4,388 nucleotides of DNA, taken from positions 1 through 4,388 of IMG/VR virus record IMGVR_UViG_2648501437_000021; one strand, given 5' to 3'. The notes beneath the pieces were generated by a model, which did not search any database, had not been told where the DNA came from, and saw only the letters and a program-made list of their open reading frames with translations. The position numbers were made by a program, and so were the translations under genes. Numbering within the stretch: the stretch's first letter is position 1; each line of letters opens with the position of its first letter. The DNA is from a virus (lineage: Duplodnaviria > Heunggongvirae > Uroviricota > Caudoviricetes). Below, piece after piece: positions 1 to 4,388 of the stretch.

Positions 1-2
1 TA

Positions 3-800
3 TCATCAAACCGCCCGACACATTTCAGTTCATGGGCGCGCAGGAGCATTATTCCGGATCGTCTGGCAACCGCTATTCTGAACGCAGCCGGGCGCACCTC
101 AGCCTTCATCAGTGGTAAGGCACCGGAAATCAAACCCTCGCCCGGCGGCAACACGCCATCGGGTCCGTCTGCAGATACGTCCGTTCGCACAATCTCCCTG
201 CTGCCGGCAGCCGGAGAGGCTGCTGCGCAGGGCTGGAGCATTAAAGATGGCGGAATTCAGTTGTCAGATGGTGTATTTAAGATCACCAAGCAGAGCAATA
301 AAACCTGGTCCCTGACGCATCCGGTGGATGACGCAATTACCCTGCTGACACAGGGCGGCAGACTGACCTGTAAGTTCCGCCTGTCAGGCGCACTGACCAA
401 CAATCAGTTCGGGCTGGGGATTTATCTGTATACGGACGCTCCCGTTCCTGACGGCGTGGCGATGACCGGGACCGGTAACCCGTTCCTGATGTCGTACTTC
501 ACCCAGACCACAGACGGCAGAGTGAATCTGATGCATCACAAGAAAGCAGGAAACACAAAGCTGGGCGAGTTCGGCAATTACAGTAACGACTGGCAGACGC
601 TGGAACTGGTGTTCACCGCCGGCAGTGCCACGGTTACTCCGAAACTGAATGGAGTGGCTGGCCCGGCATTCCAGGTCATAAAAGACAGTCTGACACTGGG
701 ACTGAATGCGCTGACGCTGACGGATATTACAAAAAATGCAGCGTATGGCGTTGAGATAGAAAGTCTGGTGCTGGAGATAAATGCACCGGCATCATCATAA
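3..800 (+). CDS. 3'-terminal part of a larger late-region gene (5' end outside window); Pro/Gly/Ser-rich linker followed by a ~200-aa C-terminal domain of unknown function
   Basis: Frame 3 is open from the first base to TAA at 798-800, with no in-frame stop or ATG/GTG/TTG before the TTG at 261, so the listed 261..800 ORF is the tail of a longer gene. Codon usage is enterobacterial (ccg, ctg, gcc, ggc, acc). Residues encoded around nt 120-180 (APEIKPSPGGNTPSGPSADTS) look like an interdomain linker. It sits directly upstream of the holin, the position where lambdoid phages carry morons such as stx and nanS-p. Product identity not established. Confidence 0.7.
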   Translation, partial: SSNRPTHFSSWARRSIIPDRLATAILNAAGRTSAFISGKAPEIKPSPGGNTPSGPSADTSVRTISLLPAAGEAAAQGWSIKDGGIQLSDGVFKITKQSNKTWSLTHPVDDAITLLTQGGRLTCKFRLSGALTNNQFGLGIYLYTDAPVPDGVAMTGTGNPFLMSYFTQTTDGRVNLMHHKKAGNTKLGEFGNYSNDWQTLELVFTAGSATVTPKLNGVAGPAFQVIKDSLTLGLNALTLTDITKNAAYGVEIESLVLEINAPASS

Positions 801-883
801 AAAGTGAGCCAGCCAAATGGAAGGTATCGTTAAACTCACCGGTAGTGTCAGTGGGTCGTCTGAGACGCCTGCATGAGTTATCA

Positions 884-914
884 GAGCCATCAGTACTTAA
901 CTGGTGGCTTTTTT
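884..914 (+). terminator. Rho-independent terminator between the upstream gene and the holin
   Basis: AGCCATCAG (884-892) pairs with CTGGTGGCT (900-908) as a 9-bp stem with one G-U wobble, 7-nt loop TACTTAA, followed by a T6 run at 909-914. Confidence 0.6.
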
Positions 915-950
915 TATTGTTGTCAGCTTCCGGATAACGGGAGACGGGGT

Positions 951-1166
951 ATGGACCAGATGGAAAAAATCACAACAGGTGTGTCATACACCACGTCAGC
1001 GGTGGGAACGGGATACTGGTTACTGCAGCTGCTGGACAAAGTCTCCCCGTCCCAGTGGGCGGCAATAGGCGTGCTGGGGAGTCTGCTGTTTGGCCTGCTG
1101 ACATATCTGACTAACCTGTATTTCAAAATCAGAGAGGACCGGCGTAAGGCGGCGCGGGGAGAGTAA
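951..1166 (+). CDS. S: Class II holin of the phage 21 S type (pinholin), 71 aa, with Met1/Met4 dual-start motif
   Basis: [71 protein letters not shown] is near-colinear with phage 21 S as I recall it: weakly hydrophobic Gly/Ala-rich TMD1 (SAR-like), TMD2, and the same charged C-terminus [17 protein letters not shown] at 940-943 lies 7 nt upstream of ATG 951; a second in-frame ATG is at 960. The listed 873 start is an upstream extension through the terminator hairpin with no RBS. Confidence 0.85.
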
Positions 1167-1170
1167 AGCG

Positions 1171-1515
1171 ATGAAGAAAAAATACGAACTGGTTGTTAAA
1201 GGGATAAATAATTACCCGAATAAGATTACTGTTACTGTGGCACTGGAAATTGGTGGGTATCCGTCACTGTTGTTGCCAGATGTGGCGATTAGTCTTGACC
1301 GTACTGAAGATGCCACGCTGGAGTTTTACGAAGCTGAGGCGAAAAAGCAGGCGAAGCAGTTTTTCATGGATGTTGCTGCCGGGTTATGTGAAGGGGATGG
1401 TCCGTTGCCGGAAAAGCGCCCCGTAATTTTAGAGGCGCAGGATGTGTTGATAACCTACAGAGGAAAACTACCGGGAATAATTACTGGTTCTCTGAAGACT
1501 CCACCGCTGGCCTGA
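1171..1515 (+). CDS. Hypothetical 114-aa soluble acidic protein inserted between holin and endolysin
   Basis: ATG lies 4 nt after the holin stop (TAA 1164-1166), suggesting translational coupling. Clean ORF with enterobacterial codon usage, no signal peptide or TM segment. Position and size resemble small uncharacterised ORFs found between holin and endolysin in some E. coli lambdoid prophages (e.g. ydfR of Qin); homology not verified. Confidence 0.65.
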   Translation: MKKKYELVVKGINNYPNKITVTVALEIGGYPSLLLPDVAISLDRTEDATLEFYEAEAKKQAKQFFMDVAAGLCEGDGPLPEKRPVILEAQDVLITYRGKLPGIITGSLKTPPLA

Positions 1516-1565
1516 AGACTTAACATATCCAGGGATTTGAAATCGATAAACCCTGATAAATATCC

Positions 1566-2099
1566 ATGAACACAAAAATCAAATACGGCCTGTCGGCTGC
1601 CGTTCTGGCGCTGATTGCCGCAGGTGCGCCTGCGCCTGAAATCCTCGACCAGTTTCTGGATGAAAAGGAAGGCAACCACACCACGGCATACCGTGATGGC
1701 GCAGGTATCTGGACCATCTGCCGCGGTGCCATCATGGTGGATAGCAAACCTGTCGTCCCGGGCATGAAGTTGTCGAAGGAAAAATGCGACCAGGTTAACG
1801 CCATTGAACGTGATAAAGCGCTGGCATGGGTGGAGAAAAACATCAAAGTGCCACTGACCGAACCCCAGAAAGCGGGGATCGCGTCATTCTGTCCGTACAA
1901 CATTGGTCCCGGTAAATGTTTCCCGTCGACGTTTTACAGACGAATTAATGCAGGTGATCGCAGGGGAGCGTGTGAGGCGATTCGCTGGTGGATTAAGGAC
2001 GGTGGCAGAGACTGCCGTATTCGCTCAAATAACTGTTACGGTCAGGTATCCCGTCGCGACCAGGAGAGTGCGCTGGCGTGCTGGGGAATTGACAGATAA
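1566..2099 (+). CDS. R: SAR endolysin, T4-lysozyme-like muramidase (GH24), 177 aa
   Basis: N-terminal Gly/Ala-rich weakly hydrophobic SAR domain (YGLSAAVLALIAAGAPAP) without Cys. Catalytic triad in canonical T4L spacing: E35 (EGNHTT), D44 (RDG), T50 (GIWT). C-terminal region resembles phage 21 R / P1 Lyz family. Paired with a pinholin upstream, as expected for pinholin-SAR lysis systems. Confidence 0.9.
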   Translation: MNTKIKYGLSAAVLALIAAGAPAPEILDQFLDEKEGNHTTAYRDGAGIWTICRGAIMVDSKPVVPGMKLSKEKCDQVNAIERDKALAWVEKNIKVPLTEPQKAGIASFCPYNIGPGKCFPSTFYRRINAGDRRGACEAIRWWIKDGGRDCRIRSNNCYGQVSRRDQESALACWGIDR

Positions 2100-2188
2100 G
2101 CAGAATATTTTGCTGAAAAATGCGGTTTGCTCACACGGACGGATAACACGAAATCCTGAGAACTGACAAAAACTAAGTGAATAAAAGT

Positions 2189-2228
2189 AAAACCCCCATT
2201 TGTTGGCTGCAAGCGGGGTTTTGTGTTT
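2189..2228 (+). terminator. Hairpin with flanking A- and T-tracts downstream of the endolysin; possible weak or bidirectional terminator or RNA processing structure
   Basis: AAAACCCC (2189-2196) pairs with GGGGTTTT (2215-2222) around an 18-nt loop that has an internal TTG/CAA mini-stem, followed by a T-rich tail to 2228 (TTTTGTGTTT). Stem is short, so termination efficiency is uncertain. Confidence 0.3.
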
Positions 2229-2258
2229 CCTGACTCCGGAAAAGTCAAAGGAGAAAGT

Positions 2259-2396
2259 GTGTTTGATTTTAGCAAACTGATTCGGGAGATTCGAGTGATG
2301 GCTGAAAAATTATCCACCTGGAAGTTCATCCTTATCTGGCTGGTGTTTGTGATTATGGCCTCCGGTTATTTCATCGGTCAGATACGCTGGTGGTGA
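2259..2396 (+). CDS. Candidate small single-pass membrane peptide (45 codons) between endolysin and Rz; not in the supplied ORF track
   Basis: Consensus SD AAGGAG (2248-2253) lies 5 nt upstream of GTG 2259. The ORF reads (M)FDFSKLIREIRVMAEKLSTWKFILIWLVFVIMASGYFIGQIRWW and stops at TGA 2394-2396, one base before the Rz ATG (2398). It has a ~20-residue hydrophobic segment flanked by charged and aromatic residues. An alternative start is ATG 2298 (32 aa). Confidence 0.4.
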   Translation: MFDFSKLIREIRVMAEKLSTWKFILIWLVFVIMASGYFIGQIRWW

Positions 2397-2397
2397 A

Positions 2398-2892
2398 ATG
2401 AACCGCGTACTGTGCGTGGTCATCATTGCCCTGCTGGTGGCCTGTGGTGCGCTTAGTCTGGGGCTGAATCATTACCGTGATAACGCCATAACCTACAAAG
2501 AGCAGCGCGATAAAAAAGTCAGTGAGCTGGAGCTGGCAAATGCAACCATTACTGATATGCAGCAGCGCCAGCGTGATGTTGCTGCACTTGATGCCAGATA
2601 CTCGAGGGAATTAGCCGATGCGAGAGCTGAAAATGAAACTCTTCGCGCTGACGTTGCCGCTGGTCACCGCAGCCTGCGGATCAACGCCACCTGTCCAGGT
2701 CCCGTGCGTGAAGCCACCGGCACCGCCCGCGTGGATAATGCAACCGGCCCCCAACTGGCAGACACCGTTACACGGGATTATTTCACCCTCAGAGAGCGGC
2801 TGATGACGATGCAGAAGCAACTGGAAGGGGCACAGGACTATATCCGCACTCAGTGTACTAAGCAGGCTTTTTATTATCCGGAGGATGTATGA
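2398..2892 (+). CDS. Rz: Rz i-spanin (inner-membrane spanin subunit), 164 aa
   Basis: N-terminal TMD (VLCVVIIALLVACGALSLGL) followed by a coiled-coil-prone periplasmic domain; extensive colinearity with lambda Rz as recalled (NHYRDNAITYK.QRDK, ITDMQ.RQRDVAALDA, ERDYFTLRERL.TMQKQLEG). Confidence 0.9.
   Translation: MNRVLCVVIIALLVACGALSLGLNHYRDNAITYKEQRDKKVSELELANATITDMQQRQRDVAALDARYSRELADARAENETLRADVAAGHRSLRINATCPGPVREATGTARVDNATGPQLADTVTRDYFTLRERLMTMQKQLEGAQDYIRTQCTKQAFYYPEDV
2618..2803 (+). CDS. Rz1: Rz1 o-spanin (outer-membrane lipoprotein spanin subunit), embedded in the +1 frame of Rz
   Basis: Lipoprotein signal peptide with lipobox ending ...LVTAAC, then a proline-rich mature region (CVKPPAPPAWIMQPAPNWQTPLHGIISPSESG) closely matching lambda Rz1 as recalled. 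Lies entirely inside Rz in a different frame. Start could be ATG 2618 (lambda-like length to the lipobox Cys) or ATG 2633. Confidence 0.85.
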   Translation: MRELKMKLFALTLPLVTAACGSTPPVQVPCVKPPAPPAWIMQPAPNWQTPLHGIISPSESG

Positions 2893-3113
2893 AGAAATTG
2901 CAGGTAACGGTAAAACCTTTTCAGGGAACAATTCCGTTCCGTGTTTTGCAACATGGCCGTGTTCTGCTTGAAGAGGTGTTCAGAGGTAAATGCACTGAAT
3001 GTTATTCACGAACATATGAAGTGAATGCCACGCATGAAGAATTCACCGTTGAGTGTGTGATGAATACTGATAAATGCCGAATGGTATCCGCTGAATTACA
3101 GCCAGTGTGTTGA
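2889..3113 (+). CDS. Small Cys-rich hypothetical protein (74 aa), translationally coupled to Rz
   Basis: ATG 2889 overlaps the Rz stop (ATGA overlap, TGA 2890-2892). GGAGG at 2879-2883 lies 5 nt upstream. No signal peptide. Five cysteines including a CxxC pair (GKCTEC) plus C56, C63 and a C-terminal Cys, suggesting a small metal-binding or redox fold. No family recognised. Confidence 0.65.
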   Translation: MKKLQVTVKPFQGTIPFRVLQHGRVLLEEVFRGKCTECYSRTYEVNATHEEFTVECVMNTDKCRMVSAELQPVC

Positions 3114-3394
3114 GCGACCTTATTATCCATGCGCGGTATTGTCGCCGTATTCCTGCATTAACAGAGACCGCAGCCCGACAGGGAGACTCCTCTGCGAGAG
3201 TGTGCGGGGATAATCAAAAACGATACACACCGGGGTTTACCGCGTAAACGGAGCGCGGCGTTGTCCCCTCATGGTCGCTGGTCCGGTGCGATGGTGGAAG
3301 AAACCGGACGATGTGTTACCTCGCAAACTCTGTTATGTCATGTGTCTGATTTGTGATTTAAGTCGGATAATTGTCATTGCCATTAAGCAGAGGA

Positions 3395-3437
3395 TTGATG
3401 ACCGACAGGGCTGCATTGTTAGAATAAGACTTATTCT
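3395..3437 (+). promoter_or_regulatory. Candidate sigma70 promoter with a palindrome over the -10 region, upstream of the lipoprotein gene
   Basis: TTGATG (3395-3400) as -35 and TAGAAT (3420-3425) as -10, with a suboptimal 19-bp spacer. The -10 is embedded in a perfect inverted repeat AGAATAAG-a-CTTATTCT (3421-3437). AT-rich context about 20-60 bp upstream of the lipoprotein start. Confidence 0.25.
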
Positions 3438-3457
3438 TATCTATGCCGGGAATAAAA

Positions 3458-3784
3458 ATGAAAAGAAATCTTCCGTTAATTATTTTGTTGTCTTCTTTGG
3501 TTATGGGCTGTACGCAACATAAAACAGATATGCCTCGACAGTTGGTTAAGGCATTACCACAATATCCGGCCTATGCCGCGGCAAATTATATAAAGGGACG
3601 GGTTGATGTGAAGTTTGATATTGGTGCTGATGGTACTGTCACCCGAATTGAGTTTATCCGTTCAGAGCCGCACCATCTGTTTGATGAGCAGGTTGTAAAG
3701 GCGATGGCAAAATGGCGATTTGAGAAGGACAAGCCGCGTAAAGGCGTGAAGAAAACATTTATCTTTAGTCCTTCAGCACCCTGA
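3458..3784 (+). CDS. Lipoprotein consisting of a TonB C-terminal domain (TonB_C fold), 108 aa; predicted outer-membrane anchored
   Basis: Signal peptide MKRNLPLIILLSSLVMGC with lipobox VMG-C and Thr at +2 (no Asp, so Lol sorting to the outer membrane is predicted). The mature part, LPQYPAYAAANYIKGRVDVKFDIGADGTVTRIEFIRSEPHHLFDEQVVKAMAKWRFEKDKPRKGVKKTFIF, aligns motif-for-motif with the E. coli TonB C-terminal domain as recalled (PQYPA, G.V.VKFD, DG.V, S.P, F, V..AM..WR.E..KP). GGGA at 3449-3452 lies 5 nt upstream of ATG 3458; the listed 3443 start lacks an RBS. Confidence 0.8.
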   Translation: MKRNLPLIILLSSLVMGCTQHKTDMPRQLVKALPQYPAYAAANYIKGRVDVKFDIGADGTVTRIEFIRSEPHHLFDEQVVKAMAKWRFEKDKPRKGVKKTFIFSPSAP

Positions 3785-4241
3785 TTATTTTATCAGAAGT
3801 TAATTATCACTCTGTTGCTATTCAGTACATCCCTGCAGGGTAAAGTCTTGTTTCGCCGGATATGAAGATGAAATATTGTTAGAAGACAGTAGCTACCGGT
3901 TCCTGTAACCGAACGTTCATTTCTCGTTATTTTTCATGCTGGCCGGGCGCAGGTGCTTTGCATCTGTTGCCAGCCTTCTCCTGCAGGCTTCAATAACCCA
4001 TGCCGAAAAATTACCCGATCCCTTACGTTCAAGGGCAATATGGATTTGATTAATCATCTGGTTTGGGAAGCTTTATTTTTTGATGACATTGTGTTTTTCC
4101 GTGTTCAGTGCTGCTGATTTGTATTGTCTTAAGATGTCTTTACGTTAAGTTGACACAGATCAATTAATGCATGACTTGGACAAAATTGATTATTTGTCGT
4201 GGTTTTATGGTGTACGTGGGATGTGTGATGGTATTTATATA

Positions 4242-4388
4242 AATGATAATTATTATCATTTATTGGGTCCTTTCCGGCGATCCGGCAGGCTACGGGGCGG
4301 CGACCTCGCGGGTTTTCGCTATTTATGAAAATTTTCCGGTTTAAGGCGTTTCCGTTCTTCTTCGTCGTAACTTAATGTTTTTATTTAA
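4242..4388 (+). other. Lambda-type cos region (cosQ-side palindrome, cosN, start of cosB); continues beyond the window
   Basis: From 4295 to 4388 the sequence matches the left end of phage lambda as I recall it (GGGCGGCGACCTCGCGGGTTTTCGCTATTTATGAAAATTTTCCGGTTTAAGGCGTTTCCGTTCTTCTTCGTC.TAACTTAATGTTTTTATTTAA) with one mismatch. The sequence just upstream (GGTCCTTTCCGG.GATCCG.CAGG.TACG) resembles the lambda right end. An 8-bp inverted repeat ATGATAAT-t-ATTATCAT lies at 4242-4258. Confidence 0.8.
4295..4306 (+). other. cosN cohesive-end sequence (12-nt GGGCGGCGACCT)
   Basis: Exact match to the lambda 12-nt cohesive end as recalled, in the expected context between the right-end-like and left-end-like flanks. 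Confidence 0.75.

Follow-up and report, generated by a model that had tools for sequence, protein, structure and literature searches.

The stretch of DNA analysed here, referred to as the window, comprises 4,388 nucleotides (nt) of the IMG/VR record IMGVR_UViG_2648501437_000021 (positions 1-4,388) and is the late region of a lambdoid, Stx-phage-like prophage. Its endolysin gene, coding for an RrrQ-like lysozyme (PF00959; 1566-2099), and its Rz gene (PF03245; 2398-2892) are separated by a gap of 298 bp (2100-2397), and this gap holds a small open reading frame (ORF) on the plus strand (2259-2396), which is the subject of this study. A preliminary description of the locus had pointed out that R and Rz are normally adjacent and that they lie about 300 bp apart here, and both statements hold; in the Qin prophage of E. 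coli K-12, rrrQ and rzpQ overlap by 4 nt with zero gap. The small ORF has 45 sense codons (2259-2393) followed by a TGA stop codon (2394-2396) and encodes the sequence V/M-FDFSKLIREIRVMAEKLSTWKFILIWLVFVIMASGYFIGQIRWW. Its GTG start codon (2259-2261) follows the Shine-Dalgarno sequence for the long form of the protein, AAGGAG on the same strand (2248-2253), at a spacing of 5 nt (2254-2258), and its stop codon is separated by one base (A2397) from the Rz ATG at 2398, forming a stop-restart junction TGA-A-ATG (2394-2400, plus strand). The last codons, TGG TGG TGA, make up the GGTGGTGA stretch immediately 5' of the Rz ATG. The Shine-Dalgarno spacing, the length of the frame and its end next to Rz, when read directly, were found to be as described earlier.

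The product of the small ORF matched the phrog_6632 profile with an E value of 1.2e-29 over its entire length (residues 1-45 against profile positions 1-45 of 45), and the homologues from Salmonella, phage SEN34, Pseudomonas and phage 783R2 matched the same family. Homologues of 45 residues with equal length and end were returned by the protein search from E. coli and E. albertii, and also from E. fergusonii at 82% and Salmonella at 67% identity. When 1.84 billion cluster representatives were searched with a profile, 41 clusters at 50% identity were returned; a further profile search extended the family to Yersinia ruckeri, Burkholderiaceae, Mycetohabitans and P. aeruginosa, in which one variant was present on 497 contigs. 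The distant members follow the pattern x-D-[FI]-S-K-[LI]-I-R-E-[ILV]-R-x-M-x-E-K-L-x-x-W-[KR]-F, then about 20 hydrophobic residues, with an RWW end in many of them, and the protein is conserved down to ~35-45% identity with length and motif retained. At the DNA level, the first scan of viral contigs had yielded near-identical copies alone, and the diversity came from degenerate DNA patterns; 5 of the 213 instances found by these patterns were truncated (four at 37 residues and one by a contig end) and a few more were mutated. The frame was found open in 24 diverged lineages. The ratio of nonsynonymous to synonymous differences (pN/pS) across 25 lineages was 0.52 in frame, and the two shifted frames gave 0.74 and 1.48; silent sites were near saturation across this set, and closer enterobacterial pairs gave a pS of 0.50 and a pN of 0.20. 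In the membrane helix the codons for Leu, Val, Phe, Ala and Arg vary freely and hydrophobicity is retained. Frameshifts and stops in homologous regions, which the preliminary description had named as what would refute the frame, are not the pattern seen, as the frame is conserved from E. coli to Pseudomonas and Burkholderiaceae; its judgement that the arrangement is beyond chance is borne out by the full-length profile match, the few truncated copies and the 24 open lineages. The frame at 2259-2396 is a real gene, and it encodes a 45-residue single-pass inner-membrane protein of phrog_6632. It had been called unlisted, which is correct for most phage records and for some E. coli genomes and incorrect for others, where the Prokaryotic Genome Annotation Pipeline (PGAP) gives exactly this ORF as a 'hypothetical protein' (RefSeq WP_000459345.1).

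An equivalent of the Shine-Dalgarno sequence (GGGAG, GGAG or GAGG) was present at the same spot in all lineages, and the codon matching 2259 is GTG in most of them and TTG or ATG in the remainder. The presence of ATG, GTG or TTG at exactly this codon elsewhere therefore supports 2259 as the start, and not the upstream GTG at 2223. The second start noticed earlier, ATG 2298-2300 (Met14), is present as well and lies on the plus strand 9 nt behind an internal Shine-Dalgarno sequence, GGGAG (2284-2288; the whole element spanning 2284-2300). Met14 was kept in 14/14 lineages from the protein search, a (C/A)GG GAG Shine-Dalgarno sequence stands 8-9 nt upstream of its codon across the lineages with Arg9 mostly ending in GG, and several gene callers begin the small protein there. 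These sequence features suggest that an internal start at ATG 2298 may give a second product of 32 residues.

The hydrophobic segment of about 20 residues in the preliminary description is confirmed by the Kyte-Doolittle scale, on which the best 19-residue window (residues 24-42) has a mean of 2.13, and by AlphaFold2, which predicted a single continuous helix over residues 4-44 with a mean predicted local distance difference test score of 87. Residues 2-21 are amphipathic (hydrophobic moment 0.5-0.6), the membrane-spanning helix covers approximately residues 23-42, and the C-terminus carries the RWW tail. Five Lys/Arg residues are found on the N side of the membrane helix and one on its C side, and this charge distribution suggests a cytoplasmic N-terminus. 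Searches of Pfam, NCBIfam and PADLOC with the small ORF and nine related small ORFs gave no meaningful match, and a PDB sequence search with the family profile gave zero matches.

Genomic contexts of the small gene

The phrog_6632 gene was found in several unrelated surroundings. In the window it lies between a GH24 (signal-arrest-release) lysozyme and a PF03245 Rz, in Salmonella between a P22-type lysozyme and a PF03245 Rz, and in E. fergusonii between a GH19 endolysin and a DUF2514-type Rz, each time with a single nt between its end and the Rz start. Elsewhere, it is located between baseplate spike and wedge genes in Salmonella phage SEN34, after tail genes L and K in P. aeruginosa phages and prophages, among tail-tip genes in a Y. 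ruckeri prophage, after gpJ-type or K-type tail genes on metagenomic lambdoid contigs, and among ParE, YafQ/RelB and HicB toxin-antitoxin genes upstream of terminase in Burkholderiaceae prophages. It lies within late or accessory phage regions, and wherever a late gene stands immediately upstream, the two have one orientation; the toxin-antitoxin genes that flank it in Burkholderiaceae are on the opposite strand. Adjacency to Rz was seen in enterobacterial lambdoid phages, and the homologues at the SEN34, Yersinia, Pseudomonas and Burkholderiaceae loci lie far from spanins, which tells against the earlier suggestion of a membrane chaperone for the spanin or another dedicated lysis component. 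The link to Rz that the preliminary description had stressed is not supported as the point of the arrangement either, given that three endolysin types and two unrelated Rz families (PF03245 and DUF2514) accompany the ORF. The TGA-N-ATG (or TAA-N-ATG) junction recurs in Salmonella and E. fergusonii with the different Rz families, and it may couple translation to Rz locally; it does not define the family. Of the earlier proposals, that of a small toxin-like membrane peptide is still tenable.

The R-Rz gap is a hot spot for cargo. The Sakai prophages Sp15 and Sp10 have in it an antirepressor gene and a different one-helix small ORF (phrog_4906-like), and in phage vB_EcoS-783R2 (L014, 1895-2380) four one-helix small ORFs stand in tandem between R and Rz, namely phrog_6632, phrog_4906, phrog_1115/3246 and a 28-residue ORF ending IRWW-TGA-T-ATG(Rz), the last of which looks like a recombinant with only the 3' end of the cassette left. 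Among 5,426 complete E. coli genomes, 1,975 matched at least part of the R-Rz gap region of the window and 871 contained 80% or more of it; the small ORF is present in many Stx1, Stx2a and Stx2c phages. The named phages that were matched in the searches are all ones which we take to be temperate or prophage-derived. These distributions show that the small ORF is portable cassette cargo in temperate phages of gamma- and beta-proteobacteria and not a spanin-specific factor. A copy in the Actinobacillus phage vB_Apl-pPE4 (PP818812.1, 37939-38067) was found to be 88% identical to the E. fergusonii protein, which is unexpectedly close for a Pasteurellaceae phage.

The other genes of the window are those of a late region. 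The 3' end of a SASA-family (NanS-p-like) esterase gene reaches to 800 and is followed by genes for a phage-21-type pinholin (PF04971; 951-1166) and a YdfR/DUF1327 protein (1171-1515). The esterase-holin gap (800-950) contains a strong terminator-like hairpin (883-911) with a T-run. According to a 2026 preprint, the prophage small RNA genes pasA and pasC sit between a sialic acid esterase gene and the holin-lysozyme operon (PMC13192938); the gap at 800-950 resembles this locus by position alone, and Rfam gave no match there, just as a search of the whole window on both strands with E up to 1 gave zero matches. Rz1 (PF06085; 2618-2803) is embedded in Rz, and a 74-codon Cys-rich ORF without a Pfam family (2889-3113), given as hypothetical protein in annotations of related genomes, overlaps the Rz stop codon (ATGA). 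A lipoprotein with a TonB_C-type C-terminal domain (PF03544, E 2.4e-15; 3443-3784) occupies the position where lambda has bor. The gene order of the closest E. coli records is that of the window up to the 74-codon ORF and continues with terminase genes, and the segment 2880-4388 was held at 80% or more in one place in just 10 of the 5,426 complete E. coli genomes; therefore, the exact junction there is uncommon. A lambda-type cos site (GGGCGGCGACCT) was read from the sequence at 4295-4306, and the sequence 3' of it (to 4388) resembles the left end of lambda (cosB region). The window thus has its end at cos, a position to be expected on the downstream side of lysis genes, and an identity of its right end with attP was rejected as the site is of the lambda cos type.

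A leader of two hairpins

Two hairpins precede the small ORF. The first, named T1 (2183-2228; no strand assigned), is a GC-rich hairpin between an A-run (2183-2192) and a T-run (2219-2228), whose stem pairs 2189-2196 (AAAACCCC) with 2215-2222 (GGGGTTTT), and whose inner stem pairs 2199-2202 with 2210-2213 around a loop at 2203-2209. In appearance it is a two-way intrinsic terminator, and it marks the 5' edge of the cassette. The second, H2 (2231-2247, plus strand), has the stem TGACT (2231-2235)/AGTCA (2243-2247) with a 7-nt loop (2236-2242) and abuts the Shine-Dalgarno sequence. When the window was aligned with Salmonella and E. fergusonii, homology was found to start ~75 nt upstream of the ORF, at the hairpin, and the homology of Sakai Sp15/Sp10 to the window stops a few bases before the T1 stem. 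The first ~85-95 nt after the endolysin stop codon (2100-2182), which contain CTGAAAAATG and the inverted repeat GGATAACAnGAAATCC, are conserved in E. coli and Salmonella gaps and in the Sakai gaps with other cargo; this stretch belongs to the endolysin side and not to the cassette.

The layout of T1, H2 and start codon was the same, at the same distance, in every lineage examined. T1 consists throughout of an A-run, a GC-rich stem of 9-13 bp, a loop of 6-7 nt and a T-run, with AAAA before and TTTTnTGTTT after the GC stem in all lineages. H2 follows ~10-15 nt past T1 with 4-7 bp, a loop of ~7 nt and its 3' arm abutting the Shine-Dalgarno sequence, and its stem covaries, the letters differing between lineages with the pairing retained: TGACT/AGTCA in the window, CCTTG/CAAGG in many lineages including Salmonella, CATG/CATG in Pseudomonas, CCTTCTG/CAGAAGG in Burkholderiaceae, and also CGTTA/TAACG. 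Covariation was measured with a covariance model built from 23 lineages, used in place of automatic hairpin picking, which had misplaced T1 in several lineages; 39 sense-strand matches were realigned, and the values below are to be read with the caveat that this alignment was fitted to the model. Over both hairpins, 92% of cells were standard pairs and 11 of 18 pairs had changed on both sides, a level reached by 0 of 500 shuffles, and 3' partners slid out of register paired in 34-62%. T1 alone has 13 pairs with 95% of cells paired and 7 pairs changed on both sides, and 4 of the 5 pairs of H2 had changed on both sides in the same model-fitted alignment. The T1 of the window differs from the common E. 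coli allele by two substitutions (AAAACCCCCATTTG versus AAAAACCCCGTTTG) that give an internal stem mismatch, and it may be a slightly weakened copy. Some copies (L221 and L222) have two hairpins in a row upstream, and T1 is kept even where a separate terminator follows the upstream gene; some other copies have a downstream terminator, and the ORF of the window runs straight into Rz.

The same leader is not confined to phrog_6632. In a covariance-model search of the same phages it was found before phrog_12997-like proteins in E. fergusonii and Burkholderiaceae, before a 60-residue protein between tail genes L and K, and as second and third tandem copies in one metagenomic phage; it also precedes phrog_1115-like small one-helix ORFs, and a leader-only DNA pattern returned more families of 45-60 residues, many with an AIRWW end. 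The leader is a general front end for exchangeable small membrane-protein genes. An identity of the two hairpins with put- or nut-like antitermination RNA was dropped, as they are repeated in late operons before small ORFs and do not stand behind early promoters.

Several loci carry more than one leader-led gene. In an E. fergusonii prophage that adjoins NEL/LRR effector genes (L008, 3663-4000), the upstream position is taken by a second leader-led small ORF, which is phrog_12997-like and ends in KWW. After it come TGA-T-ATG and 13 codons left over from an Rz-type start, which run into T1 of the phrog_6632 cassette. In L010 the start codon of the second, phrog_12997-like ORF is mutated to ATA. 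In a Burkholderiaceae prophage (L214, 1400-5100), three leader-led one-helix ORFs alternate with ParE/DUF6290 and YafQ/RelB, type II toxin-antitoxin pairs encoded on the other strand, and the terminase genes lie just downstream.

Silent-site constraint and a putative antisense RNA

Codon use in the small gene was compared in 14 lineages collected from protein similarity alone, which avoids the bias of the DNA patterns. The pS was ~0.5 in codons 2-17 and ~0.78 (saturated) in codons 18-35. Within the constrained part, Asp3 is GAT in 9/9, Phe4 is TTT in 6/6, Ser5 is AGC in 11/12, Lys6 is AAA in 11/12, Glu10 is GAG in 13/13 and never GAA, Leu11 is TTG in 8/8 and Arg12 is CGA in 9/13. Two overlapping signals, the internal start and an antisense promoter element, can account for this constraint. 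The complement of codons 3-6 (GAT TTT AGC AAA) reads TGCTAAAAT on the minus strand (2266-2274), which resembles an extended -10 element and is a putative antisense promoter. The motif TGnTAnnAT is in register in 12 of the 14 lineages, and in 13 of the 14 the TG of the extended -10 is supplied by the use of AGC or ATC. The element is unchanged in the GC-rich Pseudomonas member, and the Burkholderiaceae member retains it (TGCTAGAAT) despite the different residues N-S-S-K (AAT TCT AGC). Furthermore, unrelated N-terminal peptides behind the leader have strong antisense -10 hexamers at codons 2-6 (TATACT, TACAAT and TATCAT). An antisense hexamer with at least 5/6 agreement was found in 9 of 14 N-terminal sequence types of leader-led small ORFs and in 9% of 588 background ORF starts from the same loci, and on the sense strand a hexamer of this quality was found in 0 of these 14 types.

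The position of the -10 element together with T1 predicts an antisense RNA of ~78 nt on the minus strand (2182-2260), and the predicted RNA folds into a free 5' anti-Shine-Dalgarno stretch, a hairpin and a terminator hairpin. With this geometry, the conserved A-run at the upstream side of T1 would be the U-tail of that RNA. We consider the chances for and against the existence of such an RNA as evenly balanced. Two other candidates were set aside. The promoter-like site CTGACC-18-CATAAT on the minus strand (2381-2352), within the 3' half of the small ORF, was rejected as an antisense promoter, as it scores 9/12, sites of this kind are as frequent in the window as in shuffles, and it is not conserved in Salmonella. 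The Hfq-bound RNAs EcOnc10, 11 and 12 (Tree et al, 2014) were rejected as the antisense RNA despite lying on the antisense strand ~5 kb past the cargo site, because EcOnc11 maps just after Rz and the gap in Sakai Sp10/Sp15 holds other cargo.

Proposed mechanism, rival readings and significance

We propose that the small gene encodes a late membrane effector that is gated in a type I toxin-antitoxin-like manner by the ~78-nt antisense RNA. We give this composite reading a probability of roughly 0.4, and its lysis-promoting or toxic effect is graded below the antisense RNA taken alone. In the lysogen, T1 would block stray sense transcripts, and the extended -10 in codons 3-6 would drive a constitutive antisense RNA that begins opposite the start codon, pairs with this codon, the Shine-Dalgarno sequence and H2, and ends at T1, thereby keeping translation off. 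The protein would be made only when strong late transcription reads through T1; in lambdoid phages Q renders this transcription resistant to terminators. It could appear as two products, of 45 residues from GTG 2259 and of 32 residues from ATG 2298. Its site of action late in infection would be the inner membrane, whose integrity or potential it would most likely lower, in turn bringing about an earlier or sharper holin-dependent lysis, and at this locus its stop codon would probably hand ribosomes over to Rz through the TGA-A-ATG junction. The nearest functional precedent for a late membrane effect that sharpens lysis is hokW-sokW of prophage Sp5 of enterohaemorrhagic E. coli, a type I pair that is derepressed on induction and whose deletion halves phage release (PMC8621323).

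The likeness to that system is partial. The small ORF and the hok/sok pair hokW-sokW share a small single-helix inner-membrane protein on a lambdoid prophage, and at 45 residues with a membrane helix the ORF falls within the type I range of hydrophobic proteins of <60 residues. The hok/sok or ldr/rdl layout has an antisense RNA overlapping the 5' end of the toxin message; here such an RNA is putative and would end at a hairpin with a U-run. Help in lysis and release after induction is known for hokW-sokW and is proposed for the small ORF. In contrast to hok/sok, the small ORF has no dedicated toxin promoter and stands co-directionally in the late operon behind a terminator-like hairpin, its N-terminal 20 residues are highly conserved and amphipathic, and toxicity as well as antisense RNA are putative; a relation to Hok in Pfam and a match to Sok in Rfam were both absent.

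Several observations weigh against the gated-effector proposal. The ORF has no similarity to known type I toxin families or antitoxin RNAs in Pfam, NCBIfam or Rfam, and the literature search for any family member found zero transcript, translation, toxicity or phenotype data. The terminator scan, which asks for at least 5 T in 8 nt after the stem, does not flag T1, presumably because its A-run and T-run pair and extend the stem, and the two-hexamer promoter scan does not flag the antisense -10 site, the -35 region of which is weak (TCGAAT or TCGCAA, 3/6). Two lineages (L222 and L223) lack an in-register TGnTAnnAT. Folds of the window sequence are not unusually stable (z -1.3 and -0.7), and the counts of wobble pairs in the hairpins, 22 G-U on the plus strand versus 27 A-C, favour neither strand as the working RNA. 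The internal Shine-Dalgarno sequence and the need for open AT-rich sequence after a weak start can explain part of the silent-site conservation. As for the effector itself, the strong conservation of the N-terminal helix points to a specific protein partner over plain membrane damage, and the restriction to temperate phages is equally compatible with a role in the lysogen.

Some of these points are what an account without any antisense RNA would build on. Here the gene is real, T1 is an ordinary terminator or a mosaic recombination boundary that is carried along, H2 is a hairpin tuning translation or stabilising mRNA, and the silent sites reflect the internal Shine-Dalgarno sequence and start-proximal constraints. 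The silence of both scans and the missing strand bias agree with this, the internal GGGAG accounts for the GAG at codon 10, and a weak antisense -10-like hexamer occurs by chance at ~41% of background ORF starts. Against it stand the strong antisense hexamers in 9/14 types against 9% of the background across unrelated N-terminal peptides, the AGC/ATC choice that makes the extended -10 TG in 13/14 lineages, the conservation of an A-run outside the stem of T1, of use solely in termination on the minus strand or in extended pairing, and the retention of T1 where the upstream gene already has a separate terminator; we regard this account as unlikely. To take the ORF itself as a chance frame in a non-coding spacer, with the RNA or DNA elements alone being functional, would suit its shortness and its omission by many annotations. 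This view is effectively refuted, and its probability negligible, in the face of ~35-45% identity with length and motif kept, a PHROG family, an in-frame pN/pS that is the lowest of the three, and membrane-helix codons that change freely with hydrophobic residues staying.

Two further explanations concern the role of the protein. Morons, in the Hendrix/Juhala concept, are extra genes between genes that are adjacent in related phages, and classic morons, whose expression takes place in the lysogen, bring along a promoter of their own and a terminator at the downstream end. The small ORF does sit between genes adjacent in related phages, and the cassette shares with morons the insertion between R and Rz, the tail-gene cargo sites and a mosaic spread over unrelated phages. 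Its product could be an accessory inner-membrane protein expressed in the lysogen, with the N-terminal helix as the binding site for a membrane protein of host or phage and with possible roles in blocking DNA entry of superinfecting phages or in other lysogenic conversion, the hairpins being insulators only. The confinement of the family to temperate phages and prophages, its occurrence at sites typical of cargo (among them the R-Rz gap, the spaces between tail genes and the vicinity of type II toxin-antitoxin genes) and the motif SK-I-RE-R-M-E-L-W-K/R-F before the membrane helix, which resembles an interaction surface, speak for such a protein. We nevertheless find it unlikely, as promoter scans and inspection recognised no sense promoter in the space from T1 to the ORF and no conserved one further upstream, the hairpin immediately 5' of the gene is terminator-like and is doubled in some copies (L221 and L222), an arrangement that argues against expression in the lysogen, and PADLOC gave no match; the want of a recognisable sense promoter and the placing of the hairpin also set the cassette apart from classic morons. 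A dedicated lysis-cassette component, be it an Rz chaperone or a dual-start antiholin-like timer translationally coupled to Rz, would fit the constant distance of 1 nt from the end of the ORF to the Rz start in lambdoid phages of Escherichia and Salmonella, and the other one-helix small ORFs that related phages carry in the gap. Its dual-start layout recalls S107/S105 of lambda, which, like S71/S68 of phage 21, are the products of dual-start holin/antiholin genes; shared features are a small membrane protein in a lysis cassette, two in-frame starts each with a Shine-Dalgarno sequence and a hairpin beside the upstream one. Unlike these holins, the small ORF has one membrane helix, starts 13 codons apart, no match to Pfam holin families and relatives that lie outside lysis cassettes and far from spanins, some of them among tail and baseplate genes and others near terminase, and the window already has a separate S21-type pinholin at 951-1166. 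The variety of its partners in lysis cassettes (endolysins of three types, holins of at least three types and Rz proteins of two unrelated families), and the overlapping R/Rz without such a gene in many lambdoid phages including K-12 Qin, make this explanation highly improbable.

The gated-effector proposal can be extended beyond phrog_6632, to a superfamily, so far undescribed, of self-insulated type I-like cassettes in the late operons of temperate proteobacterial phages, an extension that we consider doubtful. Such cassettes would combine a hairpin-terminated ~78-nt antisense small RNA with its promoter written in the first codons of the gene, a covarying hairpin beside the Shine-Dalgarno sequence with a possible kissing-loop contact, and an exchangeable one-helix effector, often RWW-ended and often with two starts. 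They could be inserted anywhere in a late operon, would be silent in the lysogen and fire under massive late transcription, and their effectors would tune lysis or abort superinfection. A full-text search for the peptide, the PHROG identifier and the RefSeq accession returned zero papers, and the peptide and DNA strings are absent from the Sakai ribosome-profiling supplements (PMC5597208); in Sakai itself the cassette is not present in Sp10 and Sp15, the two prophages checked. The gene as such is already in the databases as a hypothetical protein (phrog_6632, WP_000459345.1), in entries that neither assign a function nor describe the leader or connect the gene with the sister families sharing it; the cassette architecture, its sharing by several small-protein families and the promoter-like element in the first codons have no description in the searched literature.

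If the antisense part of the proposal is wrong, the ORF still merits consistent annotation and should not be read as a spanin accessory, and the shared leader is a handle for finding more unannotated small membrane-protein genes in phages. If it is true, this would be a case of a promoter encoded within the first codons of the gene it regulates. A cassette working as proposed would represent a widespread regulatory layer in phage late expression that is invisible to current annotation, and, with many Stx phages carrying the cassette, a late membrane effector could shift the timing of lysis and hence the release of toxin and phage.

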